From Escherichia phage ECML-4: 64,000 bases of DNA. The stretch lies in sequence record JX128257. The stretch is one strand, 5' to 3'. Numbering within the stretch: position 1 is the stretch's first letter; the number at the start of each line of letters is the position of its first letter. The notes under the pieces were generated by a model. That model did no database searches, was not told where the DNA came from, and saw nothing but the letters and a program-made list of their open reading frames with translations. Positions 3,424-63,261 of this stretch are shown in pieces. Made by a program: the position numbers and the translations under genes.

Positions 3424-5706
3424 ATGATTAACATCATAAAGCGGGACGGATCTTCTGTCCCCTTTGACATTGAAAAACTCCACACTGTTCTTGAACGTGC
3501 CTGTGAAGGATTAGAAGGAGTTTCGGTGTCTGAGGTGGAAGCAGCATCGAAGATTCAGTTCACAGACAATATGAAAACCGAACGCATTCAGGATATTATC
3601 ATCCAAGCGGCGGCTACATTGATTTCTGTAGAAAAACCCAACTACCAATATGTTGCTGCCCGTCTGAAATCGTATGACCTGCGCAAAGTCGTCTATGGGC
3701 GATACAAGCCACCTCATTTGCTTGATATATTCGCTAAAAACATCAAGCAGGGCGTTTATGATCGTGAATTCCTCGAACTCTATACGAAAGAAGAATTTGA
3801 AGAACTGAACACGGTCATCAATCACAAACGCGACAAGAATTTTACTTGGGCGGCTATGGGCCAGCTCACGCAAAAATATCTTTTGCGCGATCGCTCAGCA
3901 GACAGCAAAGTATATTACGAAACGCCTCAAGTCATGTATATGGCGATCGCGATGGCCCTGTTCTCTGCATGGGATAAAGAAACTCGCCTGACGATGGTGA
4001 AGAAATTTTATGAATACGCCAGTACAGGTAAATTCAGTCTTCCAACACCCATCATGTCCGGCGTTCGTACCCCAACCCGCCAATTCAGTTCTTGTGTTCT
4101 TATCAAAACCGGTGACACTTTGGACTCAATCAATGCTACAGCCAAAAGTATTGTTGATTATGTATCCAAACGCGCTGGGATCGGATTTGATGTCGGAGCA
4201 ATTCGTGGCATCGGTAGCCCTATCCGAAAAGGTGAAATGGTGCACACAGGTCTGGTTCCTTTCATAAAATATCTGACTGGGGCATTAAAGTCTTGCTCTC
4301 AAGGCGGTATTCGTGGCGGATCAGCAACTTGCTATATCCCTATCTGGCATTATCAATTTGATGATGTTGTGGTCCTGAAGAACAACCGTGGTCTTGAAGA
4401 GAACCGTGAACGCCGTATCGACTATGGTATTCAGATCAACCGCGTCATGTTCGAACGTCTGGTGAACAAACAACCCCTGTATTTGTTCGATCCGAAAGAC
4501 AACCGCGATATGTACGAAGCGTTTTTCGCAGATGTCGATAAGTTCCGTACCCTGTACGACAACATGGTCAAAGCTGCTGATGCTGGTTTGGTTCGTGCCA
4601 AGAAGATGAATGCGGAAGAAGTATTCCAGATGTTGTTGGATCAGCGTTCAGATACAGGCCGCATCTACATCGCGTTTGTCGACCACATGAACCAGTACAG
4701 CCCATTCAATCTAGACACAATCTATAGTTCTAATCTGTGTCTGGAGATTGCGCTTCCTACTCGTGAATTCCAACAGTACGACGATGAAGAAGGTCGGATC
4801 GCTCTGTGTACTTTGGCCTCTTTTAACCTGACGGCGTTTGAAGACCCGACAGAAATGGAAGACGTTGCATATGTCTTGGTTTCGGCTTTGGATATGCTGC
4901 TGGAATACCAAGATTATCCAGCACGTCAAGCCCGTCTGGCTGTAGAAGAATATCGTCCTCTGGGTATCGGTGTCGTCAACGTCGCGCATTTCTTCGCCAA
5001 GAACTTCACGGGGTATGGATCTCCTGTTGGGTTAGAACTCCTGGACAAGTGGATGGCGCACCTGCATTTCTATCTGGTAAAGGCTTCGAATCGTCTGGCC
5101 ATGAAGTTTGGGGCATGTAAGAAGGAAACCATTCATCGTTCTGGTAAGATAACAGCCGACCTTCAACCGTTGCCGCTGGATATCCTCCCCAATGGTAAAA
5201 AGCCGGAAGGTATGGCATACGGCCTTGACTGGGACGGTTTGAAAGACTCTCTGCGTTGCCATGGTATCCGCAATGCTACTCTCTTGGCGATAGCACCAAC
5301 TGAAAGCTCCTCTCAGGTGCTGAACGCCACGAATGGTATAGAGCCACCCAAAGGCCTCATCAGTATCAAAGGCAGCAAGGATGGCGTCTACAAGCAGATC
5401 GTTCCGGACGTTGAAACCCTTGGTCCTCTATATGACCTGAAATGGAATCTGTCTTGTATCGACTATTTGAAAACAGCGGCGGTCGCCCAGCGTTGGGTTG
5501 ACCAATCCATCAGCGTTAATACACATTATGATCCAGAGAAATTCCCAGACGGGAAGATCCCGCGCTCTCTCATGATGCAGGATATTCTGTCTTTCTACAT
5601 GTGGGGTGGTAAAACTCTGTATTACAACACCAACAAAGACTCTAAGGAAGATGAAGAGTTGAAACAAATTGAAGATCCGAATCACTGTGACACCTGTGTT
5701 GTCTGA
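3424..5706 (+). CDS. nrdA: ribonucleotide reductase class Ia large subunit
   Basis: 760 aa; N-terminal ATP-cone (MINIIKRDGSSVPFDIEKL) and alpha-chain length and architecture; GAGGA SD. Confidence 0.95.
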   Translation: MINIIKRDGSSVPFDIEKLHTVLERACEGLEGVSVSEVEAASKIQFTDNMKTERIQDIIIQAAATLISVEKPNYQYVAARLKSYDLRKVVYGRYKPPHLLDIFAKNIKQGVYDREFLELYTKEEFEELNTVINHKRDKNFTWAAMGQLTQKYLLRDRSADSKVYYETPQVMYMAIAMALFSAWDKETRLTMVKKFYEYASTGKFSLPTPIMSGVRTPTRQFSSCVLIKTGDTLDSINATAKSIVDYVSKRAGIGFDVGAIRGIGSPIRKGEMVHTGLVPFIKYLTGALKSCSQGGIRGGSATCYIPIWHYQFDDVVVLKNNRGLEENRERRIDYGIQINRVMFERLVNKQPLYLFDPKDNRDMYEAFFADVDKFRTLYDNMVKAADAGLVRAKKMNAEEVFQMLLDQRSDTGRIYIAFVDHMNQYSPFNLDTIYSSNLCLEIALPTREFQQYDDEEGRIALCTLASFNLTAFEDPTEMEDVAYVLVSALDMLLEYQDYPARQARLAVEEYRPLGIGVVNVAHFFAKNFTGYGSPVGLELLDKWMAHLHFYLVKASNRLAMKFGACKKETIHRSGKITADLQPLPLDILPNGKKPEGMAYGLDWDGLKDSLRCHGIRNATLLAIAPTESSSQVLNATNGIEPPKGLISIKGSKDGVYKQIVPDVETLGPLYDLKWNLSCIDYLKTAAVAQRWVDQSISVNTHYDPEKFPDGKIPRSLMMQDILSFYMWGGKTLYYNTNKDSKEDEELKQIEDPNHCDTCVV

Positions 5707-5737
5707 TTAGGTCTATACCACACAATCGTTTAATATC

Positions 5738-5765
5738 AGGGGTGATTCGTCACCCCTTATTCATC
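5738..5765 (+). terminator. intercistronic hairpin between nrdA and nrdB (terminator-like, weak T-run)
   Basis: AGGGGTGA-TTCG-TCACCCCT 8 bp stem directly before the nrdB SD. Confidence 0.5.
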
Positions 5766-5776
5766 AGGAAAGAAAC

Positions 5777-6880
5777 ATGAACGAACAAAAGCAATTCTCA
5801 GTATTCGATCCATCTTCAAATAATACAGGACTGCCATTCTTTGGCGACCCTGTAAGTATCCAGCGTTATGACAAAGTGGCTTGGCCTTTTGTTCAAAAAT
5901 GGTATGAAAAAGGCCTCAGCCAATTCTGGCGTCCGGAAGAAGTGGATGTCACCAAAGACAAAGCGGACTTTGCCACTCTATCCGCTGCGGAACAACACAT
6001 CTACTTCAGCAACCTGAAACGCCAAACCATGCTGGACTCTATTCAGGGCGCTGCTCCGTTCGAAGCGTTTGGCCCGTGGGCATCAACACCAGAAGCGCAA
6101 TTTGCTATTCTGGAATGGACGCGCCAAGAAGCCATCCACTCACTATCTTACACGCATATCCTTCGTAACACAGTGAATGATCCTGGTATCGTTTTTGACC
6201 ATGTTCTGGACGTTCAGGAGATCGTAGATTGCGCCGGACAGATCAGCGTATACTACGACGACATGGTGCGTTACAGCGGGATGCGTATGGCTGGACGCGC
6301 GTTCACCCGTGAAGACATCATGAACGCCAAGCGTGCATTCTGGCGTGCTCTGTTTGCTGCCAACTCCCTCGAAGGCGTCCGTTTCTATGTTTCATTTGCG
6401 TGTTCTTGGGCATTCATGCAATTCCTCAACAAAATGGAAGGCAATGCCAAGATTATTCGCCAGATCGCTCGTGACGAGCAAGATCACCTCATTCTGACAC
6501 AGACTTTCCTGAATCGTCTTCCGTTGTTAGACCCTGATTTTGGTATCATCCGTGAAGAACTGCGTGGCGAAATGACCCAGATGTATGTGGATGTGGTCAA
6601 CCAAGAGAAAGAGTGGGCGAACTATCTGTTCAAAGACGGATCCATGCTGGGTCTGAACGCAAATATCTTACACCAAATGGTTGATTGGCTAGCAACACAT
6701 CGTATGGGCGCGATTGGCCACCCGTACCCTGGGCAAGCCCGTAAAGACAATCCGGTTCCATGGATAAATGAGTGGCTAGATAATAAAACAATGCAATACG
6801 CATTACAGGAAGCGGAAGCCCCTGATTATCTGACTGGTGTCCTTACTGGATCAGTCTCCGACGGTCTGAAATTTGTTTAA
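5777..6880 (+). CDS. nrdB: ribonucleotide reductase class Ia small subunit
   Basis: 367 aa, immediately after nrdA, ferritin-like beta-subunit pattern. Confidence 0.9.
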   Translation: MNEQKQFSVFDPSSNNTGLPFFGDPVSIQRYDKVAWPFVQKWYEKGLSQFWRPEEVDVTKDKADFATLSAAEQHIYFSNLKRQTMLDSIQGAAPFEAFGPWASTPEAQFAILEWTRQEAIHSLSYTHILRNTVNDPGIVFDHVLDVQEIVDCAGQISVYYDDMVRYSGMRMAGRAFTREDIMNAKRAFWRALFAANSLEGVRFYVSFACSWAFMQFLNKMEGNAKIIRQIARDEQDHLILTQTFLNRLPLLDPDFGIIREELRGEMTQMYVDVVNQEKEWANYLFKDGSMLGLNANILHQMVDWLATHRMGAIGHPYPGQARKDNPVPWINEWLDNKTMQYALQEAEAPDYLTGVLTGSVSDGLKFV

Positions 6881-19426: not shown

Positions 19427-19454
19427 TTTAACTCAGAAGCATTCAATAGATGAA

Positions 19455-19485
19455 GGGGCTGCTATAATAGCAGCTCCTTTTGTTT
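19455..19485 (+). terminator. rho-independent terminator
   Basis: GGGGCTGCT-ATAAT-AGCAGCTCC stem followed by TTTTGTTT. Confidence 0.65.
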
Positions 19486-19498
19486 ATTGGAGCACACC

Positions 19499-20161
19499 AT
19501 GTCGTATTCGCTCAAAGGGTTGTTGAAGCGCCCCGTACATCTGTTTGTAAAACCACCTGCTGTCGAAGGGGAATATCCGGCACGAGGAGAGTTGTATTAC
19601 GTTAAAGGCTCCAACGGTAGCGGCAAGTCCACTGTCCCTTCCTATCTGGCGGAGAATGATCCTCAGGCGTATGTCGTGACCTACAATGGCAAGATCATGC
19701 TCACAGTTTGCCCTTCCTATAACATTATCTGTATTGGTAAATATGACAAGTCTAAGTCTAAAGGTGTTGATTCCCTGAAAGATACCGAGCAGATGTTGTT
19801 CGCCTTGTCCATTGCTGATCAGCCGGAATATCTGAAATATGACGTGTTGTTTGAAGGAATCATCCCTTCAACTTTGCTCAGCTCATGGATTCCCCGCCTG
19901 ACGCGCCCACCGCGCGAATTAGTCGTGCTCTTCATGGACACCCCGCTTGAAACCTGTGTTTCCCGTGTGAAATCACGCAACGGCGGCGCAGACTTCAATG
20001 AAAGCCTGGTTGTCGAAAAGTGGGAGAGAGTTCATGACCACCGCCAACGGCATAAAGGCTTGTTCCCTACCGTTCCCGCAGGTATGATGAAGTCCAATGG
20101 CCTGACTATAGAGCAGGCTGTTTTTGCGTTTCTCAATCGTGATTTTGGGAGTATTGATTGA
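19499..20161 (+). CDS. P-loop kinase (PNK/zeta-like; candidate nucleotide or DNA-base kinase)
   Basis: Walker A GSNGSGKST; ATG at 19499 with GGAG SD; directly upstream of and overlapping the thymidylate-synthase homolog. Confidence 0.6.
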   Translation: MSYSLKGLLKRPVHLFVKPPAVEGEYPARGELYYVKGSNGSGKSTVPSYLAENDPQAYVVTYNGKIMLTVCPSYNIICIGKYDKSKSKGVDSLKDTEQMLFALSIADQPEYLKYDVLFEGIIPSTLLSSWIPRLTRPPRELVVLFMDTPLETCVSRVKSRNGGADFNESLVVEKWERVHDHRQRHKGLFPTVPAGMMKSNGLTIEQAVFAFLNRDFGSID

Positions 20162-21201
20162 TGGAAATTTTTGCTTTAAACAATAATGATATGCTGAAGA
20201 AGGCTGTGTTGGCCATCCGTGAACACGGCATTGAGTCAGATCCTGGCAACGCAGAGATTAACACTGACGGCACTCGTTTCATTGATGGTGTAACAATTAC
20301 AGTATCAGATCCACGTGACCGTTGGCTTTCCGTTGAAGGCCGCAACTCGTCGGCAATTGCTGCCATCGGTGAGACATTCTGGGTGTTGTCCGGACGTAAT
20401 GATATCCGTTTCCTTTCGAAAGTCTTACCCCGCGCCGCCAACTTCTCTGATGACGGTGTAACCTGGCGAGGCGCGTATGGCCCACGTCTGTACAATAATG
20501 GCCAGTTGGATAGTGTCATCAGCCGTCTGCGTAATAATCCCAACACCCGTCAGGCGTATCTCACCATCTATGATCCGGCGCTGGACTCAGATGAAGGTTT
20601 GGCCGCCCATAGTGAAACTGGAGAAGCCAAGACCAAGGACATGATCTGTAATCTTGCTCTATTGTTCAGTATAACAGAAGGGCGATTGAATATCACTGTC
20701 ATTAACCGCAGCCAAGATGTCTTGTGGGGCATGAGTTCAATCAATTTCATTGAATTCTCTATCCTGCAAGAAGTTCTGGCGAAAGTGCTGAATGTCGAAG
20801 TTGGGTATTACAAACTGTTTTCTAACAATCTTCATTATTACAACAATGAAGTTAGTCGGAAACAACTCGGGGGTATCACTAAGAAGACCAAAACTTCTTC
20901 TGGGATGTACAATTCTTTGCTGGAATTCTCTTCAGAAAAAGTGAAGTCCCAAAAAGATATTTGTAATCTATTCCTCGGCGTGTTACATCACTGTGACATC
21001 GGCAGTGATTTTGGTAAAATCAGAGAACATCTGAAAGGATATCAAGCAGACACGGGATTGATGATGGATATGTCATATTGCCTGTGGTGTCGACTCAATG
21101 ATACCAAAATTGACAAACGCCGTATCGCTGATGACGGTCTTCGTACTGCATTACTGCATTCCCCTGTTGATCAGAAATTTATGTGGGGGTATGGCGAATG
21201 A
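20161..21201 (+). CDS. thymidylate synthase family enzyme (divergent; candidate pyrimidine hydroxymethylase)
   Basis: TS-family motifs (ETFWVLSGRND, RQAYLTIYDP, RSQDVLWGMSSINF); Cys-Asn instead of Cys-His at the nucleophile motif; about 80 aa C-terminal extension. Confidence 0.8.
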   Translation: MEIFALNNNDMLKKAVLAIREHGIESDPGNAEINTDGTRFIDGVTITVSDPRDRWLSVEGRNSSAIAAIGETFWVLSGRNDIRFLSKVLPRAANFSDDGVTWRGAYGPRLYNNGQLDSVISRLRNNPNTRQAYLTIYDPALDSDEGLAAHSETGEAKTKDMICNLALLFSITEGRLNITVINRSQDVLWGMSSINFIEFSILQEVLAKVLNVEVGYYKLFSNNLHYYNNEVSRKQLGGITKKTKTSSGMYNSLLEFSSEKVKSQKDICNLFLGVLHHCDIGSDFGKIREHLKGYQADTGLMMDMSYCLWCRLNDTKIDKRRIADDGLRTALLHSPVDQKFMWGYGE

Positions 21202-21767
21202 TGTACCAGAACCTTGAATTCTTCACGGGGCGCAAGCGCTCCGGCAAGGACTTCTGTTTGGAGTCCCTGATCAGTTTTCATCATATTCAGGGTGATAAGG
21301 ATATTCGTCGTCTGTCTTTCTCAGATGAACTGCGACGTGTCGCCAATTTCATCTACCCATGGCTACCAGCGGAGGTGGAGGATGCCGTGAAGGACGTTCC
21401 ATTCGTACACCCTGATAACCCCAAGGGCTTAACCCCACGGCAGATCTGGCTTCATCTGGGCAGCGATACGGGATTGCGTTATGTACAACCAGACCTGTTC
21501 CTGTCATTCTTTAAACGATATCAACTTCCTTTGGTGGAGCAGAACCCACACGTTCATTATATCGTGAGTGATTTGCGCACCCCTCAGGAATATGAATGGG
21601 CGCTGAGCACTAAATGTCCCATCACCCGCATTTCAAAGGCGGATCGCGGTGGTATCATAGAGGATGACATTGAGGCTTTCATTGATAAGATGGAAGTTGA
21701 TTATGAATTTGTCAATCCGTTTGAAGGTTGGCAACCGTTCGTCAAATTTTATAGGGATCGGAAATGA
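21198..21767 (+). CDS. deoxynucleoside monophosphate kinase (T4 gp1-like)
   Basis: GRKRSGKD P-loop variant characteristic of T4 dNMP kinase; ATGA overlap with the previous gene. Confidence 0.7.
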   Translation: MMYQNLEFFTGRKRSGKDFCLESLISFHHIQGDKDIRRLSFSDELRRVANFIYPWLPAEVEDAVKDVPFVHPDNPKGLTPRQIWLHLGSDTGLRYVQPDLFLSFFKRYQLPLVEQNPHVHYIVSDLRTPQEYEWALSTKCPITRISKADRGGIIEDDIEAFIDKMEVDYEFVNPFEGWQPFVKFYRDRK

Positions 21768-22309
21768 TCACAGCAGAGCATATTAAAAGTCTGCTCGAAC
21801 TTCAAAAGGCCACCAACGTGGCCTACTTTGGGGAAGAGTGGCGTAAACATTGGACTGAGGTTGCGGTGGTGAATTCTATCTATCGTGAGTGGGCTGAATT
21901 CCTTGACGAAGTTTCCAGCAGTTGGAAAATCTACGGCAATGACCAGCAATGGCACCAAGTGGATGCGGTGTATGAACTAGTGGACGTGGTTCATTTTATG
22001 TTGTGCGCCGTACTGCAGGAAGAAGAAAAGCCACACGATATCCCAGAAATGGTTCGATTCGTGCAGACACAACCAATCCAAAAACCGCATGACCTCAGGA
22101 AAGTGACTGAACTGTTCACGTACTTCATGTCTCATCCTGAACGTAACGTGTTGGCTACCTTCTTGGCGTGTGCTTGTGGTTATCTAGGACTGGACGCCGA
22201 AACTTACATGCTGGCACACAAACGCAAAAATGATCGCAATCGGCTGCGTGCTGCTGGCGGTGCGAACTACGATAAGTCCGCAGAAACCCCTCTGACCCTG
22301 GAGTTCTAA
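21764..22309 (+). CDS. dimeric all-alpha dUTPase/dCTPase-like NTP pyrophosphatase
   Basis: EWAEFLDE ... WK ... ELVDVVHF pattern of the dimeric dUTPase family. Confidence 0.6.
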   Translation: MITAEHIKSLLELQKATNVAYFGEEWRKHWTEVAVVNSIYREWAEFLDEVSSSWKIYGNDQQWHQVDAVYELVDVVHFMLCAVLQEEEKPHDIPEMVRFVQTQPIQKPHDLRKVTELFTYFMSHPERNVLATFLACACGYLGLDAETYMLAHKRKNDRNRLRAAGGANYDKSAETPLTLEF

Positions 22310-22839
22310 TGTTTACAGTTGTCGTATCATATTATGCGGAACATGCCCCGCGCATGGCAGAGAACTTCGCTGAGTTTATTAAACCAGGCGGTCATGTCGT
22401 TATTGCGACCAATTTCAAGAAAGAGCCAGATGGTGCGGCTACTGTAACACAACATATTACAACCAAAGAGCCGGAAACACTTTTTAAACGCATTGAAGAT
22501 TTTGCTTTTGGCGGGGAAGAAATTCCAGAGTCATTACAGCATATCTATTTTGAAGATGCGATATATTATGTTCATGCTATACCAAAAGATGTTACAACCG
22601 AACAACTAATGTATGTTTTGAATATTGCGTTAAATTTGTCATGTGTCAATAGGGCACAGCATAATCGTCTGCGCAATATGTATTTAACAGAACGCGGGGG
22701 TTCCGGAATCAGTGATGAAAAACTCCCGTCGGTAATGGCAATTCAAGAAGCAATTAACATATTGTCCAAGAAAGTCTTGGGCACCGATTTATTAATCACG
22801 ATCAACAAGCAAGAGGAAACGAAATGGCCGATTCATTGA
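22309..22839 (+). CDS. hypothetical protein
   Basis: ORF with start/stop overlap. Confidence 0.5.
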   Translation: MFTVVVSYYAEHAPRMAENFAEFIKPGGHVVIATNFKKEPDGAATVTQHITTKEPETLFKRIEDFAFGGEEIPESLQHIYFEDAIYYVHAIPKDVTTEQLMYVLNIALNLSCVNRAQHNRLRNMYLTERGGSGISDEKLPSVMAIQEAINILSKKVLGTDLLITINKQEETKWPIH

Positions 22840-24228: not shown

Positions 24229-24711
24229 ATGTTAACACAGCAGTCTCTTAAAGAAATACTACATTATAATGAAGACACTGGTTGGTTTACATGGTTGGTG
24301 GACCGTGGTGGTACTGCTAAAGCCGGAACTCGAGCGGGTTCTTTGAAACCTGACGGATACAGGGCAATAAGAATCGGAGATAAGAAATATTTAGAACATA
24401 GATTAGCATTTCTCTACAAAACTGGTTCTTGGCCGAAGAAATTAGTTGATCACAAAAACCGGATAAGGGACGACAATCGTTGGTTGAACTTGAGAGAATC
24501 CAATAAAAGTCAGAATGCGGTCAACACAGATTTGTACAGCCATAATACCACAGGTGCGAGAGGCGTGTTTCGATACAAGGGTAGGTGGTGCGTGCAAATC
24601 AGAGTTGACGGGAAATATAGATCGTTCGGGTATTACAATGAATTCGAAGAAGCAAAGGAAATGGCAGACAAGGTCTACAAAGATTTGTTCGGAGAATTTT
24701 ATCAAGGCTAG
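24229..24711 (+). CDS. HNH homing endonuclease with AP2-type DNA-binding domain
   Basis: HNH motif (DHKNRIRDDNRWLNLRE) plus AP2-like C-terminal domain; free-standing between uvsX and the helicase. Confidence 0.75.
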   Translation: MLTQQSLKEILHYNEDTGWFTWLVDRGGTAKAGTRAGSLKPDGYRAIRIGDKKYLEHRLAFLYKTGSWPKKLVDHKNRIRDDNRWLNLRESNKSQNAVNTDLYSHNTTGARGVFRYKGRWCVQIRVDGKYRSFGYYNEFEEAKEMADKVYKDLFGEFYQG

Positions 24712-38348: not shown

Positions 38349-38870
38349 TTAATTCCTTACTTTGTCAGGATTAGATAAGATTTGTTCGTATCCGACTTCT
38401 CCTTGATAGTCGAAAACATGCTGAAGAATCGCCATATCTTCTACCATCCGATAAACTTCAATTCCAGCGTTCATCAATTTTTTGATTCCATCCATAATAC
38501 GATATGGCTCACGATAATATACTTTATCGATTTTACCGCTATCTATTATCTTTTGAGTGCAATTAGGGCAAGGACTATGTGTCACAAACATAACCAACCC
38601 TGTGAAATCATCTGCATTTTCGGGGATACGCATTAGAGCATTTTCCTCCGCATGAACGACACACGGGTTTGTAACAATTTGCCCGTGTTGTTCCATCTCA
38701 CAAACATTCGGCATGCCAGGAGGCGTTCCGTTCCATCCTATAGCCACAGGCTGATCAGTTTCAGGGTTTACAATAACACAACCGACTTGCAGACGCCGAG
38801 CATAACTGGTTACACCATATGCTGCAGCTGATCGCATATGAGCAAACATCATACGTGGTTTGATAGCCAT
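38349..38870 (-). CDS. cd: dCMP deaminase
   Basis: Zinc-binding HAEENAL and PCPNC motifs of the cytidine/deoxycytidylate deaminase family. Confidence 0.85.
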   Translation of the reverse strand: MAIKPRMMFAHMRSAAAYGVTSYARRLQVGCVIVNPETDQPVAIGWNGTPPGMPNVCEMEQHGQIVTNPCVVHAEENALMRIPENADDFTGLVMFVTHSPCPNCTQKIIDSGKIDKVYYREPYRIMDGIKKLMNAGIEVYRMVEDMAILQHVFDYQGEVGYEQILSNPDKVRN

Positions 38871-40001: not shown

Positions 40002-40330
40002 AAGATCCCCAAGTCAGTAAGGTAACGATAAGACAGGACTACAGATAGAAATCCAATTAACATCCAAGACGACAGGATAGGCTTGCAATTTAGCGTAGTC
40101 TTTCCATTGGGTATGTTGGGACTTCCAGTAATAACAACCGAATCCGTTTTAGCTCTCAACGTCATGACAGAACCCATGAGAATGATTGGGCGCACATAAT
40201 GTCCGTCGCGATTGCGCTTTACAATACATGGTGAAGAAAATCGCAGGAACGGATCACCGCTTTTATAACCGAACAACTCGACCTTTTCTATTTCTTCGGG
40301 AACCTTTTGTCCAGGAAAGAATATTCTCAT
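39998..40330 (-). CDS. hypothetical protein with C-terminal hydrophobic segment
   Basis: ORF with start/stop overlaps. Confidence 0.45.
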
Positions 40331-40887
40331 AATATGATTCCTAAATTTGTGTATAACAATTCAGCTAGAGTAACAGGTCGTTTGAATTGTTCCCAGCTGC
40401 AGTTCAGATATTCACGTTCTTCGCGGATCTTTTCGTGAAGATGTCCGTGGATATTATACGCCCAACGATCTAATTGATACGGAACGTGTGTAGTCAGAAT
40501 CCGACCGACAGAAGTATCCCGCTCATACATGGCACCAAAGGATGTAATCCAGCCCTCCAGATACAACCGCATTAACATTTTGAAACTGTCGTGGTTGCCC
40601 TGTGCCACCCTGATGATAAAGTTCGGACGCCATTCATCGGGAACGGGGCGGCGCTTGAACTCATCAATGTTCCGCTTGGCTCCTTCGCGCATCAGGCGTA
40701 TGAACCCCTCAGCGCCGATAAAGCAGATGTCCCCCGCCAGTTCAAGGACATCCCGAGATTTCAGCCCTTGGAATATGCTGTCTATAACCGCAGCATCATG
40801 GGATTCTTGAGTATCGAATCCACGAGGTTTAAAGACTTTTTTATGCCCGAGGTGAGTGTCACCAAGGTACTTGACAATTCCTGCCAT
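40327..40887 (-). CDS. calcineurin-like metallophosphoesterase
   Basis: GDTHLGH, GNHD and GHLH metal-binding motifs. Confidence 0.7.
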
Positions 40888-41242: not shown

Positions 41243-41905
41243 CTATGATAACTCATAGCGATGGCGGGTACATGCAGGGCAATTACAGTCTTTTCTCAAA
41301 ATTGGCATTTCACACCACGTCATCAAACCATGTATTGGAGACATATGATGATAAAACCATGATTTTTTGAGACTAATCAAAGGATATAAAATTTCAATTG
41401 GCCTTTCCCCGTCTCTTGTCATCATATTGTATCCTTCGATGACCTTATTGAAAGCTGGGATCCAGTGGATCGCGTCGTCCCCGTTGACATATGCCAATAT
41501 GTATGTGGGAGGCAAACTCCGGCCTTTAAATTGTGTGTTTAATAACCATATCGGGGCTTGTGCTAAACACGCACGAAACCCGCCGTCCGGCACGTGAATG
41601 CTACTAATCGGTTCTTGGTGATGAGTCCAACGATGCATAAGAAGCGGAGCATTCTTGTTGATCCAATTATAAATTTTATTTCGCGCCCAATTCTCACGTT
41701 TGGATTTGAAATTATTATTTTCAAGATGGCAATACACAGTATGAACCGAATAACCTTTCGATAATAACCAAACCAACATGTATGTGCTATCCACGCCGCC
41801 TGACCAAAACAATGTCACTTCTTGATTATTTTCCGGCAAAGGTGCATCCCCTTGAAGGACACGGTACACAAATTCACAATCAGATACAGAGACAGCGATT
41901 TCCAT
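41243..41905 (-). CDS. PP-loop ATP pyrophosphatase, QueC-like (putative)
   Basis: SGGVDS PP-loop near the N-terminus and a C-terminal C-x9-C-x-C-x2-C cluster; TAATG coupling to the upstream ORF. Confidence 0.6.
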   Translation of the reverse strand: MEIAVSVSDCEFVYRVLQGDAPLPENNQEVTLFWSGGVDSTYMLVWLLSKGYSVHTVYCHLENNNFKSKRENWARNKIYNWINKNAPLLMHRWTHHQEPISSIHVPDGGFRACLAQAPIWLLNTQFKGRSLPPTYILAYVNGDDAIHWIPAFNKVIEGYNMMTRDGERPIEILYPLISLKKSWFYHHMSPIHGLMTWCEMPILRKDCNCPACTRHRYELS

Positions 41906-48819: not shown

Positions 48820-49398
48820 TTATAGACCAAATTTACCGCGCCATTTCTGTACTTTGTGTTCAACAGCGCGTTCTACGTCAGGGATCGTACTCTTGAGATT
48901 GCAATGGCAGTCACAAGCCAGTTTAGCCGTGTGGCGAATAACACCGTTGATCAGATCAAAGATTTGGTCATTTGAACGCTGCGGCTGGTTCAGAAGTCGG
49001 GTGATGCGGCCTTTGTAATGATTGATCCTAGCCAACTGCCTATCCACCGGATCTACACCACCACAGAACCAGTAATCTTCCAAGGTATGCTCTGATAAGT
49101 TTGTTGTGTGGTTGGCCTGAGCCAACGCATAAATGACAGAATCGAATATTTCTTCTTTTGTCATGGAACCATGTTGTTGGATATGCTGATATTCACAAAC
49201 ATACAACAAATCCAGAGCCGAGATGATAACATCCGCCACTTCCCCATTCAAAGGTTCCGACGCAGCAATCCCGTAGAACACGTCCGATAGTTCACATGTT
49301 TCTTCTACAAGTTTACAGAACACAAATACAGATGGACGATCCGGTTCGTTCTGGCTGAGTTCATAAGATGTTTCTAAGATGCGACGAATAAATTTCAT
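48820..49398 (-). CDS. MazG-like nucleotide pyrophosphohydrolase (putative)
   Basis: EETCELSD and EVADVIISALDL motifs resembling the all-alpha NTP-PPase fold. Confidence 0.5.
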   Translation of the reverse strand: MKFIRRILETSYELSQNEPDRPSVFVFCKLVEETCELSDVFYGIAASEPLNGEVADVIISALDLLYVCEYQHIQQHGSMTKEEIFDSVIYALAQANHTTNLSEHTLEDYWFCGGVDPVDRQLARINHYKGRITRLLNQPQRSNDQIFDLINGVIRHTAKLACDCHCNLKSTIPDVERAVEHKVQKWRGKFGL

Positions 49399-62025: not shown

Positions 62026-63261
62026 TCATCGTTTCAACAAAGACATGAGGTTTACACTGGTCGACTTCGGATTGTCATCTATCTTCCGGACGGGCATTTT
62101 CAGATTAGTGTAAACCTCAGATGGTTCCCAACGCGTACCCTGCTGCAGGTGCCAAATATGAAGAGGAACACCCGTCTCAAAGAACACAGGCATCTTCCAC
62201 TTCTGGACGCCAGGAACGTGCCCTGCAGGAGCTTTTTCGCATAACAAGGTATCTGGTAGCCAGAGGGAACGGGCTTCCCATAATGCCTTACAGGAGTACT
62301 CAGGCCAGATGCGTTCCATGTAGTCGATCTCATCCCAAGTACGCTCAGCATCCCACCCGATGTAACGAGTGTTTTTCAGACGGAAGAATTTCTTAAGCCA
62401 ACAAGCACCGGAAGTCTCAAAGTTCAAACGATTGATGAACGTGATGTGACCAAACTCGGCGACACAATCTTTGAATGCCTGTTCAAGATCAGCCTCAAGG
62501 ATGTCGCATTCTTCATCGGTGATAGGACAGCCGTTGATCTTTTTCTTTCCGTGCTTGGTCACCCAGTCGTCACGGTTTGACAAGAATGCCGCGCCGTTGC
62601 GGTTGGACTCACTACCATCACGGTCACGCAACATGAACCCAGGGACGTCGATCTGATACATGTTGCCGAATACCATGTTCAGGGCTTCCAGGAAGTTCCA
62701 GGCGCTCAGGCGACCGAAGTATTTCCATCCCATAGCCGTGTCCCATAGCTTAACGAATTGATCACTTTGCAGTTTAGTCTCCAACAACGGACGGAAAGCA
62801 TCCATCTGAGTACGACCAGCTAGCCAATCAATGTAGGACTGAACACACGGGATCATCTTCGATTTGCGATAGCGGCAATCAGTATCGAATCGCATACGCT
62901 CGAAGTTCAGGTTATACCAATCACAGAATCGCTTGAACTCTTGTGGTGACTGAGGCGGTACAGGAAACTCACTATAAATCGTCCATGGGCCAATCCCATT
63001 ATAACAACAGCCCCAAAGGAACGCCATCCAGATCTTGCGCTCGATCTTCTCAAGCTGTGTAATGCCTTCAGTGACTTCAATCGCATAATCCATCAGACGA
63101 ACTTGTTGGTTGTGTTCTTCCGTATACGACAGCGCCTCCACCCATGCTTTGAGCAGATACATCCGATTCTCTGGCTTACGATAATCGATTGACAAATCAA
63201 TTGGGTACTTCCATTCAGCCGGAGGCGTATAACCTGTCGGCATTTTAGATAGATGCGTCAT
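62026..63261 (-). CDS. hypothetical protein (411 aa, Trp/Cys-rich)
   Basis: Long ORF; no domain assignable by eye. Confidence 0.5.
   Translation of the reverse strand: MTHLSKMPTGYTPPAEWKYPIDLSIDYRKPENRMYLLKAWVEALSYTEEHNQQVRLMDYAIEVTEGITQLEKIERKIWMAFLWGCCYNGIGPWTIYSEFPVPPQSPQEFKRFCDWYNLNFERMRFDTDCRYRKSKMIPCVQSYIDWLAGRTQMDAFRPLLETKLQSDQFVKLWDTAMGWKYFGRLSAWNFLEALNMVFGNMYQIDVPGFMLRDRDGSESNRNGAAFLSNRDDWVTKHGKKKINGCPITDEECDILEADLEQAFKDCVAEFGHITFINRLNFETSGACWLKKFFRLKNTRYIGWDAERTWDEIDYMERIWPEYSCKALWEARSLWLPDTLLCEKAPAGHVPGVQKWKMPVFFETGVPLHIWHLQQGTRWEPSEVYTNLKMPVRKIDDNPKSTSVNLMSLLKR

Follow-up and report, generated by a model that had tools for sequence, protein, structure and literature searches.

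A probable ViI-type thymidine hypermodification operon in Escherichia phage ECML-4

Introduction

Thymidine hypermodification in phage ViI (Vi01) is an already known pathway, published between 2018 and 2021 and partly reconstituted, with five ViI lysates reconstituting 5-(2-aminoethoxy)methyl-dU (5-NeOmdU) (PMC5889632). ViI gp67 phosphorylates the 5-CH2OH of 5-hydroxymethyl-dU (5-hmdU) in DNA to give 5-phosphomethyl-dU, as determined by LC-MS, and both gp67 and gp243 yield 5-PmdU as a nucleotide of 418 u; the serine:DNA transferase gp247 turns 5-phosphomethyl-dU into O-serinyl-T, and gp226 is a PLP decarboxylase (PMC8989533). Of the T positions in ViI DNA, 43% are occupied by 5-NeOmdU, 7% by 5hmdU and 50% by dT, and this DNA is resistant to 71% of the tested type II restriction enzymes (PMC6449724). 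In Acinetobacter phage SH-Ab 15599, gp18 hydrolyses dTTP and dUTP, not 5hmdUTP (PMC13458397).

Thymidine hypermodification protects these Salmonella and E. coli phages, which are of therapeutic relevance, from most restriction enzymes and is also a source of enzymes for DNA engineering. Here we analyze a stretch of 64,000 nucleotides from Escherichia phage ECML-4 (JX128257), referred to as the window, and in particular an operon of nucleotide and DNA base enzymes within it. The cluster adds no new biology, and the value of the analysis lies in correct annotation: the gene known to RefSeq and PHROGs as "terminase small subunit" is that of a DNA base kinase. Two observations go modestly beyond the searched literature, namely the fusion of dNMP kinase and pyrophosphatase in phage 15599 and an intragenic variable cassette in the pyrophosphatase gene.

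Results and Discussion

Operon layout and genomic context

The window derives from a Kuttervirus (Ackermannviridae, a ViI/Vi01-like Salmonella phage) showing 99-100% identity to its sequenced relatives, and the operon region is 99.5-99.9% identical at the nucleotide level to that of other Kutterviruses, including Vi01. The four genes placed at 19499-22309 in an earlier note on this DNA, which was made from the letters alone, proved to be real ORFs at those coordinates (Table 1), forming a translationally coupled operon, and all four show family matches far beyond chance. Following the order DNA kinase, thymidylate synthase (TS) homolog, dNMP kinase, dUTPase_2 and ACT_phage, the gene junctions overlap as TGATG, ATGA, ATGA and TAATG. 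A GGAG ribosome-binding site (19489-19492) lies ahead of the ATG of the DNA kinase gene, and the hairpin upstream of it is an annotated terminator in phage Maynard.

The ACT_phage gene, translationally coupled to the pyrophosphatase gene, is confined to the Ackermannviridae, where it is invariably located between the dUTPase_2 gene and uvsX; it is a possible member of the pathway. A sequence search of solved structures gave no match for the ACT_phage protein, the DNA kinase or the dNMP kinase, and scanning the entire window for Rfam families and tRNAs likewise gave no match. Minus-strand ORFs overlapping the operon (e.g. 20133-20546) were treated as spurious, since they lie inside conserved coding genes of the opposite strand. 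Downstream of the operon an HNH homing-endonuclease ORF is found at 24229-24711, which Vi01 does not have.

Table 1. Location and family assignment of the operon genes and of other pathway-related features in the window.
Feature	Position	Strand	Evidence or remark
Class Ia ribonucleotide reductase NrdA	3424-5706	+	PF02867, E 3e-108
Class Ia ribonucleotide reductase NrdB	5777-6880	+	PF00268, E 2.2e-36
Terminator-like hairpin (13-bp stem and T-run)	19452-19480	+	Closes upstream gene; 5' edge of operon
5-hydroxymethyl-dU DNA kinase (5-HMUDK; ViI gp67 orthologue)	19499-20161	+	PF18748, E 1.7e-116
TS-superfamily enzyme, putative dUMP hydroxymethylase (dUMP to 5-hmdUMP)	20161-21201	+	PF00303, E 1.3e-14
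T4 gp1-type dNMP kinase, putative 5-hmdUMP kinase	21198-21767	+	phrog_139, E 3.3e-48
All-alpha dimeric-dUTPase-family NTP pyrophosphatase, putative dUTPase/dTTPase	21764-22309	+	PF08761, E 8.3e-10
ACT_phage-domain protein	22309-22839	+	PF24021, E 2.9e-89
dCMP deaminase	38349-38870	-	PF00383, E 1.4e-17; phrog_174, E 5.5e-64
Amino acid:DNA transferase (aGPT-Pplase2; ViI gp247)	62026-63261	-	PF18724 ADDT, E 3.2e-58
Second 5-hmdU DNA kinase (ViI gp243, HMUD2), C-terminal 64 codons	63804-64000	-	Cut by window edge

Outside the operon, the dCMP deaminase and the ribonucleotide reductase (RNR) that the earlier note had reported in the window were both located. Towards the end of the window, the product of the amino acid:DNA transferase gene is 411/411 identical to Vi01_199/YP_004327568 (gp247), and the translation of the truncated second kinase gene is identical to the end of Vi01_196, whose full-length protein matches PF18747 with E 5.6e-169.

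The thymidylate synthase homolog

The product of the second gene scores 54.4 bits against PF00303 (cut-off 24.3) and is 346/346 identical to Vi01_060c. A Cys-Asn pair in place of Cys-His at the nucleophile motif, as already noticed from the letters, is recovered in the alignment, where C163-N164 falls on E. coli C146-H147 and, more generally, C163, R183, S184, D186, N195, H225 and Y227 correspond to E. coli C146, R166, S167, D169, N177, H207 and Y209. The earlier estimate of some 80 aa for the C-terminal extension is roughly right: compared with E. coli ThyA, the protein has 82 additional aa, and 119 residues follow the H-x-Y motif, vs 55 in ThyA. The C-N motif and the long C-terminal tail are common to this enzyme, YuA gp17 and SP82G, with 32-35% identity (E 1e-27 to 1e-29) to the latter two; identity to T4-type td is about 23% (E ~1e-4), and the best solved relative is the MilA CMP hydroxymethylase (E 1e-17). 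The TS of phage CBA120 has been found to cluster with enzymes of hmU phages, and CBA120 shows no 3H-thymidine incorporation (PMC3184105). Based on homology and on the ViI/CBA120 DNA chemistry, we regard dUMP hydroxymethylase as the almost certain identity of the protein. The choice between dUMP and dCMP as substrate, left open in the earlier note, falls on dUMP in view of the uracil-specifying Asn that corresponds to ThyA N177, the closer relationship to the enzymes of hmU phages and the published ViI/CBA120 DNA data.

It is very improbable that we are dealing with an ordinary thymidylate synthase in a cluster for routine dTTP supply, made up of ThyA, a kinase and a dUTPase, as could be read from the "thymidylate synthase" label in GenBank, RefSeq and most database records, from the passed PF00303 cut-off and from the ~50% dT still present in virion DNA. 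When the six ThyA equivalog models of NCBIfam are considered, all scores fall far under the cut-offs, the best reaching 52.9 bits vs 327 (NF002495), and, in addition to the replacement of His147 by Asn, the folate-contacting W80/W83 region and the C-terminus of ThyA are replaced. The hmU-phage enzymes and the MilA hydroxymethylase are closer relatives, CBA120 excludes 3H-thymidine, and the genome carries two 5-hmdU DNA kinases, which need 5-hmdU DNA as substrate. Still less credible is a dCMP hydroxymethylase leading to hydroxymethyl-cytosine DNA as in T4, whose gene logic is the same (TS homolog, gp1 kinase, all-alpha dCTPase/dUTPase), and although MilA, the best solved relative, uses a cytosine nucleotide, it has an Asp where the base-specifying residue here is Asn195, as in ThyA (N177), YuA and SP82G; furthermore, CBA120 is reported to be without hmC substitution, nucleoside analyses of ViI revealed modified T, not modified C, and the dCMP deaminase encoded in the window drains dCMP to dUMP.

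The DNA kinase

The first gene of the operon encodes a 220-aa protein that matches PF18748 (HMUDK_HMUD1) with 387.1 bits (cut-off 27) over profile positions 1-196 of 196. It is 219/220 identical to Vi01_061c/YP_004327432, i.e. ViI gp67, the sole difference being S182R, and contains a Walker A motif, GSNGSGKST, at residues 37-45, in a P-loop that is kept in YuA gp13. The genomic association of the HMUDK family is found as well, given that the hydroxymethylase gene overlaps the HMUDK stop and an ADDT gene is present further on in the window. Judged by its identity to gp67, the protein would be an ATP-dependent kinase of 5-hmdU in DNA. Concerning its initial description as a "PNK/zeta-like" P-loop kinase, the P-loop stands but the label is imprecise, the protein belonging to a dedicated 5-hmdU DNA kinase family; the accompanying suggestion that it could act on hydroxymethyl groups in DNA matches the literature on the 99.5%-identical gp67.

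The competing annotations, a small terminase subunit or a kinase of free nucleotides and not of DNA, are hardly tenable: phrog_800 bears the label "terminase small subunit", which RefSeq repeats for this protein, and weak matches to thymidylate-kinase and AAA_33 profiles occur, but the PF18748 match extends across the full model, ViI gp67 puts the phosphate on 5-hmdU in DNA, the small terminase of Vi01 is a separate gene adjoining that of the large terminase (Vi01_162c), and the homolog YuA gp13 (31% identity, E 4e-16) adjoins an amino-acid:DNA transferase, not packaging genes.

The dNMP kinase and the pyrophosphatase

In phrog_139, the dNMP kinase covers profile positions 79-256 and T4 gp1 positions 83-261 (the latter with E 1.8e-65), the P-loop G-x-KRSGKD being common to both (GRKRSGKD here, GVKRSGKD in T4 gp1). 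In phage 15599, the N-terminal half of gp18 is 31% identical to this enzyme (E 5e-17). Its operon position and the fusion to a dTTPase/dUTPase in 15599 suggest that it phosphorylates 5-hmdUMP. YuA gp18, which adjoins the YuA hydroxymethylase, was considered as a counterpart and rejected, as it has no similarity to the dNMP kinase and falls into different PHROGs; Kutter et al. mention a dNMP kinase of YuA, which must therefore be encoded by a gene other than gp18.

The pyrophosphatase matches PF08761 (dUTPase_2) with 39.6 bits (cut-off 22.9) along profile positions 2-159 of 162, and the C. jejuni dimeric dUTPase 1w2y with E 7e-4. Both the Q-x3-N motif near the N-terminus, which binds the base, and the acidic motifs for metal binding are present, residues Q14, N18, E42, E45, D48, E49, E71 and D74 being invariant across alleles. 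A direct pairwise comparison with the C-terminal domain of 15599 gp18 gives 27% identity over ~100 residues (E 4e-8); a tblastn search with the window protein missed phage 15599 at a threshold of E 1e-3. Regarding the modelled base contacts of gp18, Q13 and N17 are conserved, and two of the four (Y35 and W56) are not conserved in register, V35 and I56 occupying those positions with W54 nearby. By homology to gp18, the enzyme would hydrolyse dUTP and dTTP and may spare 5-hmdUTP, although the low identity and the two replaced contacts count against the latter.

This gene harbors a sharply bounded, hypervariable cassette of ~350 nt (about 21841-22190), which shows 51% nucleotide identity between otherwise near-identical Kutterviruses whose flanks are 98-100% identical. 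A single-sequence AlphaFold2 model of the protein (mean pLDDT 39) is unusable for placing the cassette. A speculative reading, to which we give little credence, is that the cassette is exchanged by recombination and subject to diversifying selection, as a host factor binds or senses the enzyme surface. A defence system would be one candidate for this factor and a satellite repressor another, by analogy with the staphylococcal phage Dut proteins and Stl. If so, the dTTPase/dUTPase would be a pool-sanitising enzyme and, at the same time, a recognised arms-race target.

The proposed pathway

Taken together, we estimate at roughly 93% the probability that the cluster belongs to a ViI-type thymidine hypermodification pathway, of which it represents the pre-replicative half together with the first enzyme acting after replication. 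The modified-pyrimidine pathway with a hydroxymethylating TS homolog that the earlier note had put forward agrees with the literature on the 99.5-100% identical ViI proteins. Its statement that the exact modification cannot be read from sequence is valid in principle, but the identity to ViI gives 5-NeOmdU.

The pathway would start with dUMP supplied by the phage dCMP deaminase and RNR, the latter providing dNDPs. The TS homolog, using the Cys163 thiolate and methylene-tetrahydrofolate, would convert dUMP into 5-hydroxymethyl-dUMP, not dTMP, with water addition in place of hydride transfer, after which the gp1-type dNMP kinase would produce the diphosphate and the host NDP kinase 5-hmdUTP. The dimeric-dUTPase-family enzyme, if it behaves as gp18 does, would hydrolyse dUTP and dTTP to their monophosphates and spare 5-hmdUTP, and therefore the phage polymerase would write 5-hmdU for T. 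The subsequent steps are those shown for ViI and would proceed likewise here: 5-HMUDK, 99.5% identical to gp67, phosphorylates the hydroxymethyl of 5-hmdU in duplex DNA, gp247 swaps the phosphate for serine, and gp226, encoded outside the window, decarboxylates the product to 5-NeOmdU. As a result, ~43% of T positions would carry a cationic side chain.

The searched literature yielded no published enzyme assay of the TS homolog, the dNMP kinase or the dUTPase_2 protein of ViI, and the functions proposed for these three draw on homology and DNA chemistry.

It should be noted that about half of the virion T positions are plain thymine, which we counted against the pathway model, together with the one residue (S182R) that separates the kinase from ViI gp67.

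Comparison with known systems

The closest system is the 5-NeOmdU pathway of ViI, from the same genus, with the same genes in the same order (Lee et al. 2018, PMC5889632; Lee et al. 2021, PMC8989533). Vi01 comprises gp67, the TS homolog Vi01_060c, dnk Vi01_059c, dUTPase Vi01_058c, gp243, gp247 and gp226, and its proteins are 99.5-100% identical to those of the window where compared (gp67, TS homolog, gp247 and the gp243 tail). Apart from the single kinase substitution and the HNH ORF, the two show no substantial difference.

Acinetobacter phage SH-Ab 15599, also of the Ackermannviridae, has an alpha-dapT pathway with 5-HMUDK, dUMP hydroxymethylase, the gp18 dTTPase/dUTPase and Pplase2 (PMC13458397). 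Its local gene order is that of the window, i.e. DNA kinase, hydroxymethylase, dNMP kinase plus dUTPase_2, UvsX and helicase, with gp18 (391 aa) being a fusion of homologs of the dNMP kinase and dUTPase_2 proteins, which are separate here. It differs in that its DNA kinase belongs to PF18723, its final base is diaminopropane-T instead of 5-NeOmdU, and there is no ACT_phage gene.

The hmU phages (Bacillus SPO1, SP8 and SP82G; PhiW-14, SP10 and M6/YuA) possess a dUMP hydroxymethylase of the same clade as the window enzyme and, as in the proposed pathway, exclude dTTP and incorporate 5-hmdUTP. SPO1-type phages end at 5-hmdU, whereas PhiW-14, SP10 and M6/YuA go on to activate the base with a 5-HMUDK and attach putrescine, glutamate or glycine, not serine.

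More distantly, the T4 hydroxymethyl-cytosine pathway (gp42 dCMP hydroxymethylase, gp1 dNMP kinase and gp56 dCTPase/dUTPase) follows the same logic with the same three folds, T4 gp1 and the window dNMP kinase falling into one PHROG, but it acts on cytosine and glucosylates post-replicatively, in place of phosphorylation and amino-acid transfer. Finally, the CMP 5-hydroxymethylase MilA (PDB 5b6d) of the Streptomyces mildiomycin pathway belongs to the hydroxymethylating enzymes of the TS family and, at 325 aa, is similar in length to the window protein; it differs in using CMP, in presenting an Asp at the position of the window protein's Asn and in serving bacterial secondary metabolism, not DNA modification.

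Genomic context and operon architecture

The observation of four adjacent genes made in the earlier note is confirmed, and its reading of them as a modified-pyrimidine pathway is supported. The gene system is not new: of the four genes, the DNA kinase is biochemically characterised via a 99.5%-identical protein, and published work from 2011-2018 onward already gives the remaining three these roles. In three megablast searches the entire window falls within Kuttervirus, the Ackermannviridae genus of ViI-like Salmonella and E. coli phages, with 99.2-99.9% nucleotide identity, varying by segment, to GEC_vB_GOT, Maynard, Vi01 (ViI) and vB_SenM-AKM_ssTn. Since the best-matching isolate changes from segment to segment, the phage is a mosaic, and an unremarkable one for its genus. 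GC content is even throughout (ca. 0.42-0.47), and whole-window scans found no Rfam families and no tRNA genes.

The ORF check found all four ORFs at the proposed coordinates (see table). The mechanical ORF list starts three of the four farther upstream, at TTG or GTG, the credible starts being ATG codons with ribosome-binding sites, which match the Vi01 and Maynard annotation. Consecutive genes overlap by TGATG, ATGA, ATGA and TAATG, in a run that extends to a fifth gene and uvsX, and such serial overlaps mark a translationally coupled operon. The fifth product, an ACT_phage protein found only in Ackermannviridae and always encoded between the pyrophosphatase gene and uvsX, has no solved relative that we could find, and may or may not be a member of nucleotide-pool control. 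Further downstream lies a homing-endonuclease ORF, which phage Maynard also has and Vi01 lacks at the same position.

Features of the modification locus, of the remaining pathway and of the compared phage 15599 gene
Feature	Coordinates	Strand	Remarks
RNR	3424-6880	+	
Terminator-like hairpin, 13-bp	19452-19480		upstream of DNA kinase, the first gene
DNA kinase ORF	19499-20161	+	220 aa
TS homolog ORF	20161-21201	+	346 aa
dNMP kinase ORF	21198-21767	+	189 aa
Pyrophosphatase ORF	21764-22309	+	181 aa
ACT_phage protein	22309-22839	+	PF24021; translationally coupled to pyrophosphatase gene
Homing-endonuclease ORF	24229-24711	+	HNH_3 + AP2 domains; between small ORF and DnaB-like helicase gene
dCMP deaminase	38349-38870	-	
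Phosphoesterase	40327-40887	-	phrog_547, E 1.4e-42
Putative QueC/ThiI-like PP-loop ATPase	41243-41905	-	weak match, PF06508, E 3.4e-5
Second all-alpha NTP pyrophosphatase, MazG-like	48820-49398	-	phrog_1247, E 6.5e-37
ViI gp247	62026-63261	-	411/411 identical; PF18724, amino acid:DNA transferase
gp243 (second DNA kinase), last 64 codons	63804-64000	-	
gp18 of phage 15599	11151-12326 (15599 record)		compared with window 21198-22309

DNA kinase and the hypermodification pathway

The first protein matches the 5-hmdU DNA kinase family PF18748 far beyond chance (E 1.7e-116), and is identical at 219 of 220 positions to Vi01_061c (YP_004327432), which is ViI gp67 in Lee et al. (PMC8989533). Acting on 5-hmdU in DNA, that enzyme yields 5-phosphomethyl-dU (5-PmdU), a nucleotide of 418 u, and the same conversion was shown for gp243 and for the M6, PhiW-14 and SP10 enzymes (PMC8989533). 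It follows that the second of the two roles considered for this P-loop kinase, action on DNA hydroxymethyl groups, is correct. The label "terminase small subunit" that RefSeq records and phrog_800 attach to this gene is an annotation error; the true Vi01 small terminase is another gene, Vi01_162c, adjoining the large terminase.

The known route runs from 5-hmdU through 5-PmdU and O-serinyl-T to 5-(2-aminoethoxy)methyl-dU, 5-NeOmdU (PMC8989533, PMC5889632). ViI virion DNA contains 43% 5-NeOmdU, 7% 5-hmdU and 50% dT, and resists ca. 71% of the type II enzymes tested (PMC6449724). RNR and dCMP deaminase, both placed in the window by the earlier note, are indeed there, together with gp247 and the end of gp243. 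The PLP decarboxylase gp226, at Vi01 140538-141812, falls beyond the window, and gp160, judged by its ORF number, should do so too. The MazG-like pyrophosphatase and the phosphoesterase, for which no Pfam match was obtained, are candidates for further depletion of the dTTP/dTMP pool, as in hmU phages. The putative PP-loop ATPase is annotated as QueC-like in Maynard; the phage modifies thymidine, not guanine.

The thymidylate synthase homolog

The TS homolog, identical to Vi01_060c at all 346 positions, matches PF00303 (E 1.3e-14) far beyond chance and above the Pfam cut-off, yet scores 52.9 bits against the 327-bit ThyA equivalog cut-off. It was aligned with E. coli ThyA (sequence checked against PDB 1aob) and with the hydroxymethylases YuA gp17 and that of SP82G. 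The alignment bears out the Cys-Asn nucleophile motif, Cys163-Asn164 facing ThyA Cys146-His147, and the C-terminal extension, the protein exceeding ThyA in length by 82 aa, with 119 residues following the H-x-Y motif where ThyA has 55. The catalytic Cys, R183, S184, D186, H225 and Y227 are kept, as is the uracil-specifying Asn195 (ThyA N177), while the W80/W83 folate region becomes F-S-D-D-G in the TS homolog and both hmU-phage enzymes. The latter (351 and 383 aa) also share the C-N motif and the long non-ThyA tail, which are hence hallmarks of the dUMP hydroxymethylase clade and no peculiarity of this gene.

In tblastn searches the TS homolog shows 32-35% identity to the YuA, M6-like and SP82G enzymes (E 1e-27 to 1e-29) and only ca. 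23% to T4-type td (E ca. 1e-4), alignment beyond Ackermannviridae being limited to residues ca. 1-235. Its best solved relative is the hydroxymethylase MilA (E 1e-17), in which Asp takes the place of the TS homolog's Asn. Kutter et al. had already concluded in 2011 that the CBA120 enzyme is a hydroxymethylase, and they showed that this phage does not incorporate 3H-thymidine (PMC3184105). Because a literature search found no direct assay of the ViI protein, we strongly infer, short of demonstration, that the TS homolog is a dUMP hydroxymethylase.

A variable cassette in the pyrophosphatase gene

Variation is locally concentrated in the pyrophosphatase gene. Compared with phage STML-13-1, the dNMP kinase is 99%, the ACT_phage protein 100% and the pyrophosphatase only 64% identical; nucleotide identity is 98.3% over 21600-21840, 51% over 21841-22190 and 100% over 22191-22500. 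These sharp boundaries mean that recombination exchanges an internal segment, in which residues ca. 50-67 and ca. 81-137 vary and which is flanked by invariant catalytic motifs. Most Kutterviruses carry pyrophosphatase alleles only 60-80% identical, with neighbour genes at 90-100%. In the phage collection, the pyrophosphatase is at least 95% identical in only 19 records (228 in the 60-80% band) and the dNMP kinase in 53 (44 in that band), and the ACT_phage protein is at least 90% identical in 172.

dNMP kinase, pyrophosphatase and their fused counterpart

The dNMP kinase matches phrog_139 (E 3.3e-48) far beyond chance, over the same profile region as T4 gp1, with which it shares the P-loop G-x-KRSGKD, so that its description as T4 gp1-like holds. 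The pyrophosphatase matches PF08761 (E 8.3e-10), likewise far beyond chance, which makes it, on this sequence evidence, a dimeric dUTPase family member.

The most telling comparison is with gp18 of Acinetobacter phage SH-Ab 15599, an unclassified phage of the Ackermannviridae; this protein hydrolyses dTTP and dUTP and spares 5-hmdUTP (PMC13458397, 2026). Two of the four modelled base contacts of gp18 are conserved in the window pyrophosphatase (Q13 as Q14, N17 as N18); in place of the other two, Y35 and W56, the window enzyme has V35 and I56, and W54 close by, so that sparing of 5-hmdUTP by the window enzyme remains something we infer.

Around gp18 the 15599 genome is syntenic with the window, the order being DNA kinase, dUMP hydroxymethylase, gp18, UvsX and primase-helicase. 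In direct comparison, gp18 residues 4-171 align with the window dNMP kinase (31% identity, E 5e-17) and residues 200-304 with the pyrophosphatase (27%, E 4e-8); judged from these alignments, gp18 is a fusion of homologs of the two. The main text of PMC13458397 describes only the C-terminal, dUTPase-like domain, leaving the N-terminal kinase homology unmentioned, and leaves the phosphorylation of 5-hmdUMP to kinases of the host. Fusion of the two in 15599 speaks for their window counterparts working as a unit, in which the pyrophosphatase would clear dUTP and dTTP and the dNMP kinase would push 5-hmdUMP forward.
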